DNA of 64,000 bases from Candidatus Poribacteria bacterium (GCA_965218095.1 OZ244587.1:1216001-1280000); one strand, 5' to 3'. Numbered from the stretch's first letter, positions 54,336 to 61,116 are shown. Numbers and translations are program-made. The notes: a model not told the origin generated them from the sequence alone.

Positions 54336-54386
54336 TCGACTGGCCCTCCGAGAACACTAAATAATCCTGAATTAGAAAGATGTCTA

Positions 54387-55222
54387 GGTTCTGTTGACAT
54401 TTCAAGCGAGCCATATAAGAGTGGCGACAAAGCTGAGAAATCCAAAATAACGGACAACTAGCTTCTCAAACCGAGAGAAGATACGACGATACCATTTTAT
54501 CTTGTTGATGAAACATTCAACCCGATGTCTCTCTTTGTATAAGTGTTTGTCATACGTTCTTTGGTCAACACGATGACTTTTTGGCGGTATCACCGCAATC
54601 GCTCCATTCGCCTCAATAACCGCGATAAAAGCGTCCGAATCGTACTCCTTGTCTCCAATCACATATTCACTGTTATATCCGATTATCAACCCTTCCGCCT
54701 CAGTTATGTCATGTCTCTGACCGGGGGTCAGATGAATTCTTAGCGGATTGCCTAGTCCGTCAACGGTGATGTGATTTTTTGTACTGAAACCGCCCCGAGA
54801 CCGACCTAATGCTTGGTTTTCAGTGCCACCCTTTTTTTTAAGGCGCCAGCTTTTTAAGGCGCCCGCCGCAGACGGGTGAGCGCAGCAGATGGTACTGTCC
54901 ACAATAAGCGACTCGATATCGGGGTCAGAGGCGAAGTGGTAGTGGATCTGTGTGAAGATACCTTTGTCGCACCATCGAGCAAACCGCTTGTAGCGGGTGT
55001 TCCATTTGCCATAGGTGTCTGGTAGAAGTCTCCATTGAGCGCCGCTACGAGTCACCCACAGAACTGCTTCGACGAAGCGGCGTGTAGCAGCTTCGTCGCC
55101 AACATAGATGGTGGGACAGCTTAGAAGAAACCGGTATATCTTATTCCATTGTTCATCAGGTAAGGTTATTGGCGTCATTCTTCTATTATGCCACAACCTT
55201 ATACTCAAATGTCAACAGAACC
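54387..55222 (-). mobile_element. IS5 family (IS427 group-like) element, copy 1, 836 bp
   Basis: 16-bp TIR GGTTCTGTTGACATTT / AAATGTCAACAGAACC flanked by TA; reconstructed target CTAA. Confidence 0.92.
54402..55208 (-). CDS. IS5 family transposase (single ORF)
   Basis: RSGAQWRLLP..YGKWNT, VDST, LGRSRGGFSTK, GDKEYDSD, YKERHRVECF. Confidence 0.92.
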   Translation of the reverse strand: MSIRLWHNRRMTPITLPDEQWNKIYRFLLSCPTIYVGDEAATRRFVEAVLWVTRSGAQWRLLPDTYGKWNTRYKRFARWCDKGIFTQIHYHFASDPDIESLIVDSTICCAHPSAAGALKSWRLKKKGGTENQALGRSRGGFSTKNHITVDGLGNPLRIHLTPGQRHDITEAEGLIIGYNSEYVIGDKEYDSDAFIAVIEANGAIAVIPPKSHRVDQRTYDKHLYKERHRVECFINKIKWYRRIFSRFEKLVVRYFGFLSFVATLIWLA

Positions 55223-55298
55223 TAATGAAAAACTTGCATTTTCTTTAACAGTAAGGCAAACTGAATAAGGAAAATTTTAACAGAAAGGGGATTGTATT

Positions 55299-55793
55299 AT
55301 GTTATATTTGAATTCAGTTGGGAATGCTACCGCCAGCAAAACGGAGAAAAGATACGCGATCTGTCACGAAAAGGTTCCCCTTATGCAAAACATTACGGAA
55401 TTGGCGCCGTCAAAGGAACTTCTGGCACAGTGGCAATCAGAAAAGATTGACTGGGAAGACTTTTGGCAGCGATTCATTGACGAAATGCGAGCGGAGTATC
55501 GCAAGGACGACAAAAGCCGACTCAAGAGATTGGCAAAATCTGGAAACGAGAGAGCAGGACAAAGCGCGCGAGAACCGATTGGGGATACACAACTGACTAA
55601 GGTAGATCGACAGCGAATGGAGGAAATCGCTGCGAAATGTGAATTTTTTTCGTCCGGACAGCCACGCAGCCGGCGGCGAACCTGCCAAGTCTGTAAGCAT
55701 TTAGATCAACAGGCCTATATGTGTCCTATGACCCGGCAGGTCGTCATCCATTACGAGTGGACGACGCTGCTCCGGTTCGGTCCTCAAGCCTGA
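55299..55793 (+). CDS. DUF488-like protein with C-terminal Cys cluster (possibly internally deleted)
   Basis: ELAPSKELL..W..IDWEDF..RF..EM; lacks usual LLCxE..CHR; CQVCKH..C tail. Confidence 0.55.
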   Translation: MLYLNSVGNATASKTEKRYAICHEKVPLMQNITELAPSKELLAQWQSEKIDWEDFWQRFIDEMRAEYRKDDKSRLKRLAKSGNERAGQSAREPIGDTQLTKVDRQRMEEIAAKCEFFSSGQPRSRRRTCQVCKHLDQQAYMCPMTRQVVIHYEWTTLLRFGPQA

Positions 55794-56542
55794 TACGCAT
55801 GACTGGTTTTGAGGAATGCTTGTACTTCAGATGGCACAAGATGATCAATCGAATTTCCCTGTTGGATCTGTGTACGAATGTCCGTTGAAGAAATCTCGGC
55901 ATAAAAATTTGGCAATCCGATTAGATCGATGCAGCTTGCGTAACGTTGGAAATCCGGCTGTGCCAGCAATTGCCTCATGGCGTCGGCATTATGTTCTTGA
56001 CGGTTTGCAACGATGAGGCAACACTGACCGAGGAGGGCTTCCAATGCGCCGTGCAGATTGGTATAATATTTCGCGTTGAAGATGCGAACCAGCGTATCGT
56101 AGCCGAGGATAAACGAAAAGTGCGTGCCGGATGGATACGCTGGCTTTAAGGCTTCAATTTTCTCGATGAACCTGCCGTGACTACAAGCTGCCACAGAGAA
56201 ATTCTTCCGGCTTACAGCGTACAGCCTGAGCATCAACAGCCGATCTGCGAGAGAAAGCCCGAACACGCCTTTATCGACGTTTACTCTCGCCAAGATTAGC
56301 AAAATCTCATCCAGATTGTATTGCTTGTGCGCCTCTTCGATCATTTTGATGTGGGCGACGGTGAGCGGATTGAAGGAACCGGAGAAAATACCAAGCCTTC
56401 TTCCGCTGTCTTTGATACGTTGAGGGGCACGATAAACCCAGCAAATCTCTGGTTCGCCATCTGGATCTAGCTGATCAACAAGCCTCTCTAGGCGACGATA
56501 TTCATCGGACTGTTTGAATGTTTGAATGTCTCCCACAATCAA
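55784..56542 (-). CDS. Cytidylyltransferase-superfamily nucleotidyltransferase, NMNAT/Pof1-like
   Basis: GSFNPLTVAH, NVDK, GYDTLVRIFNAKYY, ISSTDIR. Confidence 0.85.
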   Translation of the reverse strand: MIVGDIQTFKQSDEYRRLERLVDQLDPDGEPEICWVYRAPQRIKDSGRRLGIFSGSFNPLTVAHIKMIEEAHKQYNLDEILLILARVNVDKGVFGLSLADRLLMLRLYAVSRKNFSVAACSHGRFIEKIEALKPAYPSGTHFSFILGYDTLVRIFNAKYYTNLHGALEALLGQCCLIVANRQEHNADAMRQLLAQPDFQRYASCIDLIGLPNFYAEISSTDIRTQIQQGNSIDHLVPSEVQAFLKTSHAYQA

Positions 56543-56739: not shown

Positions 56740-56768
56740 TTGACAAACTTTCCCAAATCGCATATCAT
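56740..56768 (+). promoter_or_regulatory. Sigma70-type promoter of PTPS-tgt operon
   Basis: TTGACA-17 bp-TATCAT. Confidence 0.65.
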
Positions 56769-56787
56769 AAAACTATCCTGAAGTGCG

Positions 56788-57189
56788 TTGAAAGAAAGGA
56801 ATTGCCCCTTGTATACAACCGTCATCGTCCCATTTGAATTCTATGCAAGTCACAGCCTGTCTGTTCGGGAAAAGCCGCATAATCACTATTGGACACTGAA
56901 GCTGTTTGTGAAAGGCATCCCGAAAAATGGCATGGTTATTGACATTCTCAAGCTGCGACAACTCACAGATCCGTATGTCGAAAAGCTTGTAGATACTTAC
57001 CTGAATGACAATCCCGCCCTGACCGAAGAACAGGCGGCTTGCCCAACTTGTGAAATGCTTGCTGCCTATTTCTATGAGCATGTCTCCCAAGCCCTGGAGG
57101 GGTTCGATGCTGAACTCAAAGCCGTCGAGGTTGAATTACGTGAACTTGAAGGGAAGGAATGGGGTGCGGCACGACTCGAAGCGGATTAA
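56788..57189 (+). CDS. 6-pyruvoyl-tetrahydropterin synthase/QueD family protein, ExxHNH variant
   Basis: FYASHSL..EKPHNHYW, GMVIDI, YLND, PTCEMLA; likely TTG start at 56809. Confidence 0.85.
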   Translation: MKERNCPLYTTVIVPFEFYASHSLSVREKPHNHYWTLKLFVKGIPKNGMVIDILKLRQLTDPYVEKLVDTYLNDNPALTEEQAACPTCEMLAAYFYEHVSQALEGFDAELKAVEVELRELEGKEWGAARLEAD

Positions 57190-59069
57190 AATGACTGACG
57201 CTCCGACTTATCAAACCAAAATCCGAAGGAAGGGTGGCAGGATCGGTGAGTTTCACCTAAAGCGTAACAGTAAAGGGCTCCACCCGTTATCAACACCCAT
57301 TTTGTACCCTGTCCTCTCATTCATGACCGGTACAAGTCCACGCGGCGGTGGGATTTGGAAATACCTGTTGAGAGATTTCATGAAGCACAACGTGCCGATC
57401 CTCTCGCAAGTGCTGCATTTTCTGGACTTCAATCTCACCGGCAAGCACATTAAACGCTGGCGAAATAAGTCGATGCGTGAATGGTACCGAGGGGTAAATG
57501 GATTGTATCATGCACCACTTGTCCTGGATTCCGGCGGGTTCAAATTGCTTTACAATGCCGGACTCGATCTCTCAGAGTTTGGGATTCATAGAGAGACAGA
57601 GGCGGATGATATTCTTGCGTTTCAACTCGATGTCGGAGGGGACATCATCGCATCGCTGGATTATCCACTTCCTCCCGGACTTGCCCGCCCCGAAGCGGAA
57701 GCCCGCATGAATCGAAGCCACCAGAACGCATTTCGGGTTGCAGAGCGACTCGCAGAGATGGACAAACCACCTTACCTGTATATCTGCTGTCATGGACAAT
57801 CGAGAGCAGATATTCAAAATTATGTCGATCAGATTTTTGATCGGTTAAAGGGTGTACTTCCCTCTTTCGGTCTTGCAGTCGGTTCACTGGTGCCGCTGCA
57901 GGGCGGCAATGATTCGGAGGTGCTCTTACGAATTTGCGGTGTCCTCGACGCAATTTCTGAATCAGAGCGAGATCTAACGCCTATCCATGCTTTTGGGATT
58001 TCTGGTAATCTGACGCCTATATTAGCCTACCTGGGAGTCGATAGTTTTGACAGTACAAGCTACATCCAATCGGCGCGGAATCTTGGCTATTCCGAGCCCG
58101 AGACGCAAAGAAAATTAAAGGTCATGGAATTGGATACGATGGATTGTACTTGTCGTGTCTGCCGGGAAACTTCCCTTGAAGAAATGCAGCAGGCATTTAT
58201 GGAAGCCGAAAGCTATCGGCGAACATCAACAGGGAAGTACAAAAGCGAATATTACGCCGCAATTGCGCTGCATAACTTCGAGATGGAAGCCGAAACGCTG
58301 AGAGATATGAAGGACGCGATTACAGGCGATGACACGCTTGAGGCGTTAGTTCGCCATGCCTCGACGGCTCGCGGTGTTCGAGAGGCAGTAGACTAGCTGG
58401 CTGAAAATGACGATGAATTCGCAGTTCAAATGTCAAGAACGGCTGTGGTTGTTCCCAAACGTTTGACAAGTCGGCGTACTTATCAAACAAACTCCTATCA
58501 GTTAGAACTCTTCACCTGCGCAGCCCCACCTCAAACCGATCTGTTCCTTCACGAAGAACAACCGACGATTTCGCTGAATTATACCCCCGACTCATTTTCC
58601 ATTCCGCCAGACTATCAGCCGCCCAACGGGAAGCGGATCCTTTTAACGATTCCCTGCGCAGGGAAGAAGCCGTATTCCCTTTCGCGTACCCACTCGATTG
58701 TCGACGCCAAACTTCAAACCGCCTTCGGAGAAAATCAGCGAGCGATTCACAAGATCACCTTTTCGGGCTTATACGGGCCCGTTCCTGAAGAATTTGAATC
58801 AGAGGAGGCTGTGATACGCTATGAATTCCAATTGTCGCCCCGACATACCGACCAGATACAGCTTTGCGCGGATCGGTTCAATACCTACCTACCTCGACGA
58901 ACAGGGGGAACACTATGAACTCATCGTCGGATATGCCACAAGTCGTGCCTATCGCGAAGTCTTTGAGCGCATCCAAAAGCATCGACCAGATTTTATCCTG
59001 CTCCCCACAAAACCGAAGCAGAAACGACTCTCCGAGTTCTTCCGACATATCCACCTTGATGAATTAATA

Positions 59070-60178
59070 GAGGGGTGTGCATAGTAGTTCATTGGAAAAC
59101 AGCCGCCATATGAGAGATATTGCGAGCAGGTAACTTCCATATGGCATTGGCAATCATAGCCACTTGCACTGATAACACCCCGATAGCTAAACAACAGCGT
59201 ACATTGAAAAACCCCTTGACCGGTAACTGCTTCTGTTGAGGAGTGGTGCCTATCACTTTAGCAATCAAGTCAAACAACGGTTCAACCGAACTGCGACGTT
59301 TGCTTAAACAGAGACGCTGCTTGGGTTGGTTGATAAATCGATGATACGCCTTGGCAAACCGTCCCTTTGTCCATCTAAGTGCCGGGGTAATCAAAGCGAC
59401 TTGTGCCTTCGCCCAACGACGGATACGGTCTGCTTGGGTATAGGCATCATCGGCAGTGAGTGTCTGCGGTGAAAGTTGTGTCAGAATCTCAGACGCTTTA
59501 GCATCTATCGCCCAACTTTCGGAGACCGACGCACGGTGCACAGTTATCAGTGTTGGGAACGCACCTTGTGTGCAGATAATGTGAAGTCCGTAGCCATAGA
59601 CCCAGCCATGATAACCACTCTTGCTCCACGTGGCATCGGTGTCGAGGTTGCGTAGATGTTTAGGTACTTTTCCTGCTTTGCGGTCAGTTTGATGCCAGAC
59701 GGGTCCTCGTGCCTTAAATAAACTTTTGTCGGCTACCAGATGAGCCAAGTTGAATTGTTGGGACAAGTCAGTGGCATACTGACCGATAAACAATACAAAT
59801 GCCTCTATCACTTCATATAATGCCTTATAGCGACGTGCAATCGTGGTTCGATGAGGGGGCTGTTGCCACCCCAGCATTTGTAACACTTCTGGGTGATTGA
59901 TTAGCCACCGCCATTGCGTTTTGAAGCCATAGATGCCGTGAAACTGCATCAACATGAAGAAAATGATAAACGAGGTGGTTGAATATGTCAATGGTTTTGC
60001 GTGTGTGACACCTGGTTTGTCAATACGGTGTTGCATAAACTGCTCAAAGAGTTGCATAATAAGAGTGACATAATCAGCCAACATTGGTCTTTGTACCATA
60101 TTGGGGCTCCTTTTGCTATGATAACAATAGGAAACCCTTTTGGCTTGATTATGTCAACTATATTTATGCACACCCCTC
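59070..60178 (-). mobile_element. Insertion sequence, DDE_Tnp_1 (IS982/IS5-like), 1109 bp
   Basis: TIR GAGGGGTGTGCATA / TATGCACACCCCTC; perfect 8-bp TSD AATTAATA. Confidence 0.92.
59089..60099 (-). CDS. DDE transposase, homologous to 13545-14573
   Basis: ADKSLF, DATWSKSGYHGWVYGYGLH, ADDAY, VEPLF. Confidence 0.9.
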   Translation of the reverse strand: MVQRPMLADYVTLIMQLFEQFMQHRIDKPGVTHAKPLTYSTTSFIIFFMLMQFHGIYGFKTQWRWLINHPEVLQMLGWQQPPHRTTIARRYKALYEVIEAFVLFIGQYATDLSQQFNLAHLVADKSLFKARGPVWHQTDRKAGKVPKHLRNLDTDATWSKSGYHGWVYGYGLHIICTQGAFPTLITVHRASVSESWAIDAKASEILTQLSPQTLTADDAYTQADRIRRWAKAQVALITPALRWTKGRFAKAYHRFINQPKQRLCLSKRRSSVEPLFDLIAKVIGTTPQQKQLPVKGFFNVRCCLAIGVLSVQVAMIANAIWKLPARNISHMAAVFQ

Positions 60179-60244
60179 AATTAATAGAAGTTTTATTGAG
60201 TGTTTTAGAGAAGAAAGCTGTTCAGGAGGGCTACAATGGTGCTA

Positions 60245-61068
60245 GGTTCTGTTGACATTTCAAGGGAGCCATATAAGAGTGGGGACAAAGCTGAGAAATC
60301 CAAAATAACGGACAGCTAGCTTCTCAAACCGAGAGAAGATACGACGATACCATTTTATCTTGTTGATGAAACATTTAACCCGATGTCTCTCTTTGTATAA
60401 GTGTTTGTCATACGTTCTTTGGCCAACACGATGACTTTTGGGCGGTATCACCGCAATCGCTCCATTCGCCTTGATAACCGCGATAAAAGCGTCCGAATCG
60501 TACCCCTTGTCTCCAATCACATATTCACTGTTATATCCGATTATCAACCCTTCCGCCTCAGTTATGTCATGTCTCTGACCGGGGGTCAGATGAATTCTTA
60601 GGGGATTGCCTAGTCCGTCAACTGTGATGTGATTTTTTGTACTGAAACCGCCCCGAGACCGACCTAATGCTTGGTTTTCAGTGCCACCCTTTTTTTTAAG
60701 GCGCCAGCTTTTTAAGGCGCCCGCCGCACACGGGTGAGCGCGGCAGATGGTACTGTCCACAATAAGCGACTCGATATCGGGGTCAGAGGCGAAGTGGGGG
60801 TGCATCTGTGTGAAGATACCTTTGTCGCACCATCGAGCAAACCGCTTGTAGCGGGTGTTCCATTTACCATAGGTGTCTGGTAGAAGTCTCCATTGAGCCC
60901 CACTACGAGTCACCCACAGGACGGCTTCGACGAAGCGGCGTGAGATGGTGGAGATGGTGGGACAGCTAAGAAGAAACCGGTATATCTTATTCCATTGTTC
61001 ATCAGGTAAGGTTATTGGCGTCATTCTTCTATTATGCCACAACCTTATACTCAAATGTCAACAGAACC
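60245..61068 (-). mobile_element. IS5 family (IS427 group-like) element, copy 2, 824 bp
   Basis: Same TIRs as copy 1, TA flanks; net 12 bp shorter (TISTISRRF vs TIYVGDEAATRRF). Confidence 0.92.
60260..61054 (-). CDS. IS5 family transposase (third catalytic Glu appears as Lys)
   Basis: Near-identical to 54402-55208; RHRVKCF instead of RHRVECF. Confidence 0.88.
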   Translation of the reverse strand: MSIRLWHNRRMTPITLPDEQWNKIYRFLLSCPTISTISRRFVEAVLWVTRSGAQWRLLPDTYGKWNTRYKRFARWCDKGIFTQMHPHFASDPDIESLIVDSTICRAHPCAAGALKSWRLKKKGGTENQALGRSRGGFSTKNHITVDGLGNPLRIHLTPGQRHDITEAEGLIIGYNSEYVIGDKGYDSDAFIAVIKANGAIAVIPPKSHRVGQRTYDKHLYKERHRVKCFINKIKWYRRIFSRFEKLAVRYFGFLSFVPTLIWLP

Positions 61069-61116
61069 TAATTGCATTCAAGAATAAATGCCTGAAAGGT
61101 TAGAGGTAAGTTCAGA

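Follow-up and report, generated by a model that had tools for sequence, protein, structure and literature searches.

A decayed Poribacteria operon and its TGT-DUF5591 fusion family, candidate single-chain writers of a 7-deazaguanine mark

We analyzed a 64,000-nt stretch of DNA (the window) from a sponge-symbiont Candidatus Poribacteria, in which positions 56809-60241 on the plus strand hold the remnant of an operon. Its principal gene encodes a transglycosylase of the TGT family fused to DUF5591, the core domain of the archaeosine enzyme ArcS, and it is preceded by a gene for a PTPS-like protein. We found that this copy of the fusion is a pseudogene, dead in this strain, and that it is one dead member of a live family, because an intact, 71% identical paralogue lies elsewhere in the same genome (635 amino acids; G000:C1:287709-289613). 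For the intact form, we think it probable that the TGT domain inserts the 7-deazaguanine preQ0 and that the ArcS core derivatizes its nitrile, with the cell’s own DNA as the most likely target. Coordinates are those of the window unless prefixed G000:C1, which denotes the source genome; L codes denote loci and X codes public sequencing runs.

The operon remnant encodes a full TGT joined to an ArcS core

The features of the remnant, and of the insertion sequences (IS) that interrupt it, are as follows.

56740..56768, plus strand: sigma-70-like promoter site upstream of the PTPS-like gene, TTGACA-17-TATCAT, matching at 11/12 positions
56809..57189, plus strand: PTPS-III-like T-fold gene, intact, 126 amino acids from a TTG start (PF01242, 1.5e-15; longest open reading frame from 56788)
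57191..58393, plus strand: N-terminal TGT domain of the fusion pseudogene, 401 codons from the ATG at 57191 (PF01702, 1e-17)
58394..58396, plus strand: premature TAG (TGG to TAG, a Trp codon in relatives; orthologue alignment)
58397..58881, plus strand: linker and first part of the DUF5591/ArcS-core domain, with PC-x3-KPY-x2-S-x2-H and LSGLYGPVP (PF17884, 4.5e-10)
58882..58893, plus strand: TACC three times over, against twice in relatives; the 4-bp tandem duplication gives a +1 frameshift (orthologue alignment)
58894..59068, plus strand: remainder of the DUF5591 domain in the shifted frame (open reading frame 58821-59084; family hidden Markov model, 4.9e-19)
59069..60178, minus strand: 1110-bp IS with a DDE transposase at 59089-60099 (PF01609, 7.6e-07; inverted repeats; target duplication)
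60179..60241, plus strand: last fusion codons after the IS (EVLLSVLEKKAVQEGYNG...), aligning to orthologue tails; IS5 cuts before the natural stop
60242..61072 (60242/3-61070/2), minus strand: IS5-family element, transposase at 60260-61054 (PF13340 and PF01609; 18-nt inverted repeats)

The architecture proposed in an initial annotation made from the sequence alone, a PTPS gene followed by a full catalytic TGT with a DUF5591 domain, was borne out by these Pfam matches, as was the tight spacing of the two genes, with the PTPS stop TAA at 57187-57189 and the TGT start ATG at 57191 separated by 1 nt. Read through the TAG, the translation contains LDSGGF, SLDYP, SFDS, CTCRVC...HN, PCAGKKPYSLSRTH and GPVPEE. 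It therefore has every catalytic, zinc and C-terminal motif that had been named, including the aspartates of DSG, LD.P and FD and the CxCxxC...H zinc site by which a catalytically competent TGT is recognized. The PF17884 match (58430-58915) stays in the frame of the TGT domain beyond the TAG; the family model match (4.9e-19) falls on the 58815-59081 frame, where 69% of positions are identical to residues 561-628 of protein P0051. Restored, the fusion reading frame would be about 640-650 amino acids long, consistent with the single frame of some 650 first suggested. PF17884 scored 40 bits in the window and 59.1 bits in the paralogue (cut-off 26), and PCAGKKPYSLSRTH agrees exactly with the ArcS signature PC-X3-KPY-X2-S-X2-H, as given in the available text of a phage study (PMC10516641).

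The proposal that one promoter drives both genes fared less evenly. The -35 hexamer of the site at 56740-56768 is kept in 4/5 aligned orthologous upstream regions, but the number of such sites in the region is no higher than expected (8 against 5.3 +/- 2.6).

Placement of the fusion relative to TGT, ArcS and DpdA enzymes

We scored the window read-through and the intact paralogue (bits in that order) against curated models with equivalog cut-offs. Both fell far below the cut-offs for archaeal TgtA (TIGR00432, 83.7 and 79.5; cut-off 350), ArcS (NF040592, 69 and 90.9; cut-off 440), bacterial TGT (bTGT; TIGR00430, 19.7 and 24.5; cut-off 306.75) and DpdA (NF041059, 18.1 and 25; cut-off 200), and the sole TGT model passed was that of the superfamily (TIGR00449, 57.6 bits; cut-off 47.6). 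PADLOC returned a marginal DpdA match (PDLC02807, 16.1 bits, 9.3e-4), and none of its models for CBASS (cyclic oligonucleotide-based antiphage signaling system) matched. The fusion lacks the C2 and PUA domains of TgtA and the PUA domain of ArcS: our model search found no PUA or other RNA-binding module in the fusions, whereas the haloarchaeal ArcS run as a control in the same search (Natrinema, 846.6 bits) matched PUA models. A Natrinema arcTGT control reached 629.8 bits. The ArcS control matched only the C-terminal part of TGT models, whereas the fusion has the whole barrel, the catalytic residues and the N-terminal lid.

Sequence matches in the Protein Data Bank (PDB) were best to arcTGT (1iq8, 3.7e-34), then to the DUF5591-containing AF0587 (2q07, 3.8e-13) and to bTGTs (about 1e-12); Cap10 (9ntn, 2.8e-5 over about 50 residues) and DpdA (7ui4, 4e-4) matched weakly. 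An AlphaFold model of the paralogue (predicted local distance difference test 90.5, predicted template modeling score 0.89, with a disordered linker at 420-453) also had arcTGT 1iq8 as its top fold match. Its base pocket is arcTGT-like, with GSLVP of the fusion aligned to GGVVP of arcTGT, and its N-terminus, with model strands at 6-13, 16-22, 33-35 and 37-41, aligns to the arcTGT lid segment. DpdA, according to the available text of its structural description, has no such N-terminal beta-sheet lid on its TIM barrel (PMC10164549), so the fusion differs from DpdA in keeping one. Together, the residues speak for a functional base-exchange enzyme with a predicted arcTGT-type pocket of preQ0 size. 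The archaeal flavor that the initial annotation had sensed is also upheld, since arcTGT and ArcS head the matches to curated models and solved structures and a DUF5591 search of 14 control genomes gave matches in 3 archaeal genomes only.

We placed 62 TGT domains on a tree by maximum likelihood (quick search; support from the Shimodaira-Hasegawa-like approximate likelihood-ratio test, SH-aLRT, only), in which 43/43 fusion domains formed one clade (SH-aLRT 96). This clade was separate from arcTGT, ArcS, DpdA, TGT paralogues of ~415 and ~345 amino acids, two further TGT-like genes of the genome and bTGT; in particular, it lay outside canonical bTGT and DpdA, the two placements that the initial annotation had named as fatal to its proposal. 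DpdA was represented by five curated Poribacteria genes (324-474 bits), which formed a clade of their own (SH-aLRT 100), and not by phage sequences. The fusions grouped with DpdA and the short paralogues and not with arcTGT and ArcS (SH-aLRT 93), although this deep placement is weak because several branches are long. The genome’s own bTGT is a separate gene (4888672-4889718 of the source genome; 550.9 bits on PF01702).

A widespread family of intact fusions

A database search with the TGT part returned 471 relatives at E<=0.001, and nearly all of the 120 that were listed are 610-660 amino acids long with both PF01702 and PF17884. When 1.84 billion cluster representatives were scanned with the intact paralogue, 667 matched at E<=1e-3 and 104 at E<=1e-30, among them dozens of full-length fusions at 33-62% identity. 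In all, DUF5591 is fused to TGT in 100+ full-length relatives; the link to the C-terminal domain, whose absence from homologs would have told against the initial annotation, holds across the family. Across 35 fusions the TGT columns D113, S114, G116, D157, D287, C321, C324 and H361 are invariant, and C488, K492, P493, Y494, S497, G528 and P531 of the C-terminal domain are invariant or nearly so.

The named relatives are Candidatus Poribacteria metagenome-assembled genomes. Within this phylum the fusion occurs in 54/176 genomes (44/133 of those of high quality), including 24/28 genomes of the window’s family and 19/112 of another family. The system is thus no one-off but part of a widespread family (667 representatives; 54/176 Poribacteria), with distant members in Dpd-like islands. 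PHROGs gave nothing useful for the fusion. In the literature searched, the phage study was the only paper found on a pairing of DUF5591 with a transglycosylase, and its available text treats DUF5591 as the stand-alone ArcS2 (PMC10516641); its supplementary homologue lists, which may include cellular fusions, lay outside the search. No paper on Poribacteria and queuosine was found. The TGT-DUF5591 fusion is the fused, cellular form of a known pair, transglycosylase plus ArcS core, and is uncharacterized as an enzyme type.

The nonsense codon and frameshift are older than the IS insertion

All three lesions read into the gene by the initial annotation were confirmed. The TAG at 58394-58396 aligns to TGG in 6/6 orthologous genes, with W in the intact proteins; the extra TACC within 58882-58893 faces a 4-nt gap in 6/6 orthologues; and the IS at 59069-60178 has inverted repeats and is flanked by the 8-bp target duplication AATTAATA (59061-68 and 60179-86). 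The fusion frame restarts at 60187 (EVLLSVLEKK...) and continues to 60241, where the IS5-family element breaks it. Decay in this strain, as first proposed, is therefore seen in the TAG, the frameshift, the IS and the IS5 break alike. A second IS5-family copy lies in the window at 54384-55226, and in public runs many different flanks end at 60241/60242.

Public contigs allowed the lesions to be ordered. X1 is probably the source sample; X3 and X4 derive from two separate studies and from different coded organisms. Over 57730-59061, the X3 and X4 contigs align without a gap and show 2 substitutions, and so have the same TAG and 4-bp duplication; they then join 59061 straight to 60179, which is the empty IS site. 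The X1 contig enters the IS, and the empty-site joint was not seen in X1. Public contigs with the TAG and the extra 4 bp come from three studies, those with the IS from a single one. Because the X3 and X4 contigs carry both lesions with an empty IS site, the nonsense codon and frameshift are older and shared, and the IS insertion is recent and strain-specific; this order is read from contigs and not from reads, so that rare variants may escape. Decay thus began with the change of TGG to TAG and the 4-bp duplication and went on to the IS insertion; the 3' end carries IS5. In the fusion tail, the X3 and X4 contigs are also longer by 5 bases (ATAAC) after 60233, a further population difference. 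The source genome is rich in IS elements: by tblastn, the IS5-family transposase matched 277 segments and the other DDE transposase 65. The genes that flank the operon in relatives lie scattered over its chromosome.

We find it scarcely credible that the gene is still alive, with its TAG read through or recoded and its pieces acting as a split enzyme. The TGT part alone is an intact 401-amino-acid frame, split pairs of TGT and DUF5591 type occur elsewhere, and contigs from an RNA library (X9) cover parts of the locus. That cover, however, has a depth of only 2-3.5 and is indistinguishable from carried-over DNA, the TAG replaces a Trp codon conserved in 6/6 orthologues, the DUF5591 domain beyond it is itself frameshifted and split by the IS, and all 14 related loci have one uninterrupted reading frame.

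The PTPS-like partner is accessory and is not QueD

The PTPS-like gene most likely starts at the TTG at 56809 and not at 56788, because the GAAAGGAA ribosome-binding site before this TTG is conserved in relatives, as is an ATG or TTG start, and because the resulting 126 amino acids is the length of database relatives. It had been called a “Glu-type PTPS/QueD”. The first half of this label fits, as its motif R-E-K-P-H-N-H (R-E-(K/T)-P-H-(N/T)-H, or ExxH[N/T]H, in the family, with E nearly invariant) is PTPS-III-like, ExxHxH. The second half does not: the protein scored 35.3 bits against the QueD model TIGR03367 (cut-off 89.25), and although 22 aligned members conserve the first zinc His, the HxH pair, a G-M-V-I-D strand and a P-T-C-E motif, the QueD Cys is absent and the HH pair ahead of YLN is D-T. 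The signatures given in the available text of PMC5041015 are ExxHGH for PTPS-III and CxxxHGH for QueD; the window protein resembles PTPS-III in being Cys-less with a Glu three residues before HxH, and departs from it in having N/T for G and D-T for HH before YLN. Its closest solved relative, PH0634, has W-E-D-V-H-G-H (ExxHGH). The 57 relatives in the database are all at least 58% identical and Poribacteria-type, and many are truncated. QueD genes beside distant fusions carry C-S-R-P-H-G-H, unlike the window-type PTPS.

Among QueD paralogues that sit beside a TGT-family enzyme, phage DpdL (LxxxHRHxF; PMC10516641, available text) offers a parallel, but the window motif differs, and neither a phage relative nor any other tblastn match to the protein was found in 50,697 phage records; PHROGs gave a weak QueD-like match (9.4e-5). 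The only other PTPS-family gene in the source genome encodes a tandem two-domain protein (G000:C1:4048180-4049028; L104), the second half of which has C-x5-HGH, a PTPS-II-type spacing and not the CxxxHGH of QueD.

We compared 15 window-type loci (the window, L013, which is the same place as L121, L014, L015, L112-L120, L122 and L123). The PTPS-like gene is intact in 6 (the window, L013, L014, L113, L114 and L116), frameshifted in 2 (L112 and L122) and absent in 7. Since the fusion is nonetheless one uninterrupted reading frame in all 14 loci besides the window, the PTPS-like partner is accessory and dispensable. With the exception of L030, where one copy stands ~1.5 kb upstream, it was seen in the loci examined only beside window-type fusions. 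The conserved linkage that had been envisaged is, for this PTPS-like gene, limited to part of one Poribacteria clade.

This raises the possibility, which we take seriously but lean against, that the PTPS-like protein is no functional partner and merely shares the operon, being either a pterin enzyme of PTPS-III type (side-chain cleavage of the folate kind) or a paralogue in decay. The ExxH[N/T]H motif fits PTPS-III and not the QueD CxxxHGH (PMC5041015, available text), as does ExxHGH in PH0634, and the gene comes and goes (6 intact, 2 broken, 7 absent of 15) beside fusions that stay intact in the other 14 loci. Yet the 1-nt spacing, a common promoter-like site and the conserved ribosome-binding site suggest co-expression; the family is confined to Poribacteria-type sequences (57 proteins) and, in the loci examined, lies nearly always beside window-type fusions; and its zinc-binding histidines and PTxE substrate motif are conserved. 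PTPS-III can substitute for FolB in folate synthesis, as the available text of PMC4674097 describes, and PTPS-III genomes are typically without FolB, whereas the source genome has it (124.9 bits) and needs no bypass. A role for the PTPS-like gene as a FolB bypass is weakened because FolB is present.

A conserved small gene follows the fusion in relatives

In 12/14 other window-type loci, a family profile detected a small reading frame after the fusion, starting at, or no more than ~20 nt from, the fusion stop. It encodes 65-70 amino acids (MKTK..EIGLCQTCQHVK.IENAN.SRFY.CLLS...YP.LPVLTC) with invariant C12, C15, H17, C32 and C52. This third reading frame is a real gene, mostly unannotated, because the median pairwise ratio of nonsynonymous to synonymous substitution rates is 0.10 (46-codon core, 53 pairs) against 1.04 and 1.36 in the other two frames. 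The protein matched no Pfam family even at E<=1 and has only 3 relatives in the protein database. A complex prediction of a window-type fusion with the Cys-rich protein gave interaction scores (ipSAE) of 0.00 and 0.01 (mark 0.32), which speak neither for nor against binding.

In the window, the IS5 element occupies exactly the place where this gene should begin, and the family profile found no copy anywhere in the 64,000 nt. The initial annotation had guessed at a lost third gene from an AGGAGG followed by an ATG. The gene is indeed conserved in 12/14 relatives and missing here, but the AGGAGG at 60225-60230 belongs to the coding tail of the fusion, where it aligns to Q-D codons of orthologues, and the ATG at 60236 is not a conserved start. 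The third gene also stands twice on its own, without a neighboring fusion, at G000:C1:3474779-3474955 (plus strand) and 4366106-4366321 (minus strand). The former copy, which has ~50 nt like the fusion tail in front of it, lies ~0.9 kb upstream of the gene found after the operon in relatives; judged by these sequence resemblances, it looks like the scar of another lost operon copy. A simple IS5 break that parted the window copy from the third gene at G000:3474694 was rejected, because about 50 nt of the tail occurs at both places, in differing versions. The dispensable PTPS-III-like partner and the conserved small third gene appear to be new details.

Genomic neighborhoods of the fusion

In Poribacteria, the PTPS-like gene precedes the fusion at window-type loci, and at paralogue-type loci an N6/N4 DNA methylase adjoins it in 8/16 and a MutH-like endonuclease in 3/16, the other neighbors being metabolic. 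More distant members have other neighbors. Within four genes of the fusion at 76 metagenome loci with a full fusion gene, we counted the following; the counts are not independent, because many loci are near-duplicates from hypersaline samples.

GHKL ATPase: 42/76 loci
DUF6884: 34/76 loci
Second TGT of about 415 amino acids: 31/76 loci
Genuine QueD (CxxxHGH): 14/76 loci
QueC: 11/76 loci
DEAD/ResIII helicase: 11/76 loci
Radical-SAM QueE-like protein: 10/76 loci
PLD-like protein (nuclease): 7/76 loci
GIY-YIG protein: 6/76 loci

The fusions at these loci are only 33-35% identical to the Poribacteria fusions. The second TGT of ~415 amino acids had one weak, unannotated match in phage records. The C-terminal domain of the fusion is itself homologous to DUF6884 (hhalign 92.7%, E 4.3e-7), its PCS..KPY and LSG.YG lining up with SCS..K and LSA..G, and DUF6884 is related to the DNA-binding protein YaaA, according to the available text of PMC11701544. 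The source genome can presumably make preQ0, because QueC, a QueE-like protein, bTGT and the tandem PTPS are all encoded in it.

Two further TGT-like genes of the source genome stand in defense-like settings. At G000:C1:3554560-3559625 (L111:9060-14126, minus strand), genes for DUF6884 (256 amino acids, weak YaaA match), NurA, HerA and a TGT-like protein (344 amino acids) follow one another on one strand, in an arrangement that looks like another deazaguanine-type modification and defense module. A third TGT-like gene (393 amino acids; G000:C1:674029-679261; L110:5030-10262, plus strand) directly follows a BrxC/D- and ORC/Cdc6-like AAA ATPase, with a DUF6884-like reading frame ~3.5 kb upstream by tblastn. 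Curated DpdA (>200 bits) is present in 20/176 Poribacteria genomes, the source genome not among them, and several remnants with internal stops were also seen; many Poribacteria DpdA reading frames (L130-L135) are 574-642 amino acids long and may carry an extra domain. Upstream of the operon in the window, a divergent gene like those for nicotinamide or nicotinic acid mononucleotide adenylyltransferase (55784-56542, minus strand; TIGR00482, 82.5 bits, under cut-off) adjoins a DUF488-N3a fragment (55299-55793), which the IS5 copy at 54384-55226 seems to have cut short; in related genomes the operon has neither of them as a neighbor.

Discussion

Bases of the 7-deazaguanine type are found in the DNA of phages and of bacteria with the Dpd system. 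Our results suggest that the window-type operon would once have encoded a PTPS-III-like T-fold protein, the TGT-DUF5591 fusion and a small Cys-rich protein, now lost here. The TGT domain would exchange a guanine in nucleic acid for host-made preQ0, and the tethered ArcS-core domain would then act on the nitrile to give an archaeosine-type derivative (amidine or lysine adduct) or a related one. We read the fusion as such a two-step, single-chain writer from its arcTGT-type pocket together with an ArcS core whose phage relative makes dG+, the archaeosine-type DNA base: phage ArcS2, which is DUF5591 alone, acts with DpdA2 to convert dPreQ0 to dG+ in DNA, as the available text describes (PMC10516641). 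The substrate would most likely be the cell’s own DNA, bearing a protective or epigenetic mark of the Dpd or DpdA2-ArcS2 kind; tRNA is the less likely substrate. Four features favor DNA: the fusions lack an RNA-binding module, their distant members occur in Dpd-like islands, the C-terminal domain is homologous to DUF6884, and the phyletic pattern is patchy with multiple copies.

The fusion can be set beside several known systems. Like DpdA2 and ArcS2 of Vibrio phage nt-1, it couples a transglycosylase with a DUF5591 ArcS core of the PC-X3-KPY-X2-S-X2-H type, lacks PUA and would draw preQ0 from the host pathway (PMC10516641, available text). In the phage, however, ArcS2 is a stand-alone DUF5591 protein working with a viral DpdA, whereas the window family joins both activities in one polypeptide, is cellular and chromosomal with none in viral contigs, and has a TGT that is not DpdA (18-25 against 200 bits). 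With the archaeal tRNA enzymes arcTGT and ArcS it shares its best sequence and structure matches, the ..VP.. pocket, the zinc site, the lid and the ArcS signature; archaeal ArcS differs in pairing a partial, non-N-terminal TGT-like region with PUA, while the fusion is a full catalytic TGT without C2 or PUA in a bacterial host. As in the Dpd system (DpdA/B/C with DpdD-K; PMC10164549, available text), distant members cluster with preQ0 genes, an ATPase, a helicase and a PLD-type nuclease, and a second enzyme would act on inserted preQ0. Unlike it, they show a GHKL ATPase and no ParB-like DpdB, the fusion TGT has the lid that DpdA lacks, and the Poribacteria fusion has no adjacent restriction partners, curated DpdA being a separate gene. 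DpdC is a YaaA/DUF328-type protein.

Several observations weigh against a DNA-directed writer. We infer the substrate, product and target of every family member, and the TGT domain is closest to a tRNA enzyme, arcTGT. Archaeal ArcS needs a radical-SAM partner to finish archaeosine, and no gene for such a partner is adjacent to the fusion. DpdA requires the ATPase DpdB, according to the available text of PMC10164549, and no ATPase partner adjoins the Poribacteria fusions. In Poribacteria and many other bacteria the fusion sits among unrelated housekeeping genes, and the Dpd-like context is limited to distant relatives at 33-35% identity. The PTPS-like partner, with its folate-type signature and frequent loss, may be unrelated to deazaguanines. 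In viral contigs, 118 pattern matches yielded none that was confirmed as a relative of the fusion.

These points make a tRNA enzyme, a bacterial arcTGT plus ArcS in one polypeptide that places preQ0 in tRNA and converts it to archaeosine or a relative, a serious rival, even if we regard it as unlikely. It is serious because the closest characterized relatives are tRNA enzymes (TIGR00432, 79.5-83.7 bits; 1iq8, 3.7e-34; NF040592, 69-91 bits), the fusion keeps the N-terminal lid seen in tRNA TGTs, and in Poribacteria it lies on the chromosome, for the most part with no nuclease partner, and is present in 24/28 genomes of the window’s family. Against this reading, the fusion has no PUA, C2 or other tRNA-binding domain, whereas true ArcS matches PUA models, and the scores of the fusion lie far under the cut-offs of 350 and 440. 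The tree, though with long branches, puts the fusions with DpdA and short TGT-like paralogues (SH-aLRT 93), distant members lie in restriction-type islands, and the distribution is patchy, with several copies of which one is dead. A further alternative, modification of a protein or other non-nucleic-acid target, takes its cue from Cap10, a TGT-like protein of type IV CBASS that has been reported to modify protein and is encoded with a QueC-like Cap9 and a CD-NTase. The initial annotation had drawn this tie to CBASS, but it comes down to the weak PDB match to Cap10 (9ntn, E 2.8e-5, ~50 residues): among 92 tabulated loci there was no QueC-like Cap9, cyclase or effector neighbor, PADLOC matched no CBASS model and gave only the marginal DpdA match (9.3e-4), and the C-terminal domain is that of the ArcS core, which belongs to a nucleic-acid enzyme. 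We therefore consider a protein target very improbable.

Of the readings compared, we favor the single-chain writer acting on DNA. A broader extension, which we regard as speculative and quite unlikely, is that one self-contained polypeptide serves sponge-symbiont Poribacteria, and many other fusion-bearing bacteria and archaea, to write an archaeosine-type 7-deazaguanine into their own chromosomes, and that the window-type operon, with its Cys-less PTPS-III-like and zinc-knuckle-like proteins, may make or target an undescribed derivative. According to the available text of the phage study (PMC10516641), the enzymes demonstrated to date to make the archaeosine-type DNA mark dG+ are all viral pairs. 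If the extension is true, a cellular fusion of inserter and finisher would extend dG+-type marks to bacterial and archaeal chromosomes and would offer a compact, one-gene tool. To this family the window adds a natural loss-of-function allele whose lesions can be placed in time order, a dispensable PTPS-like partner that is not QueD, and a conserved third gene that had gone unannotated.

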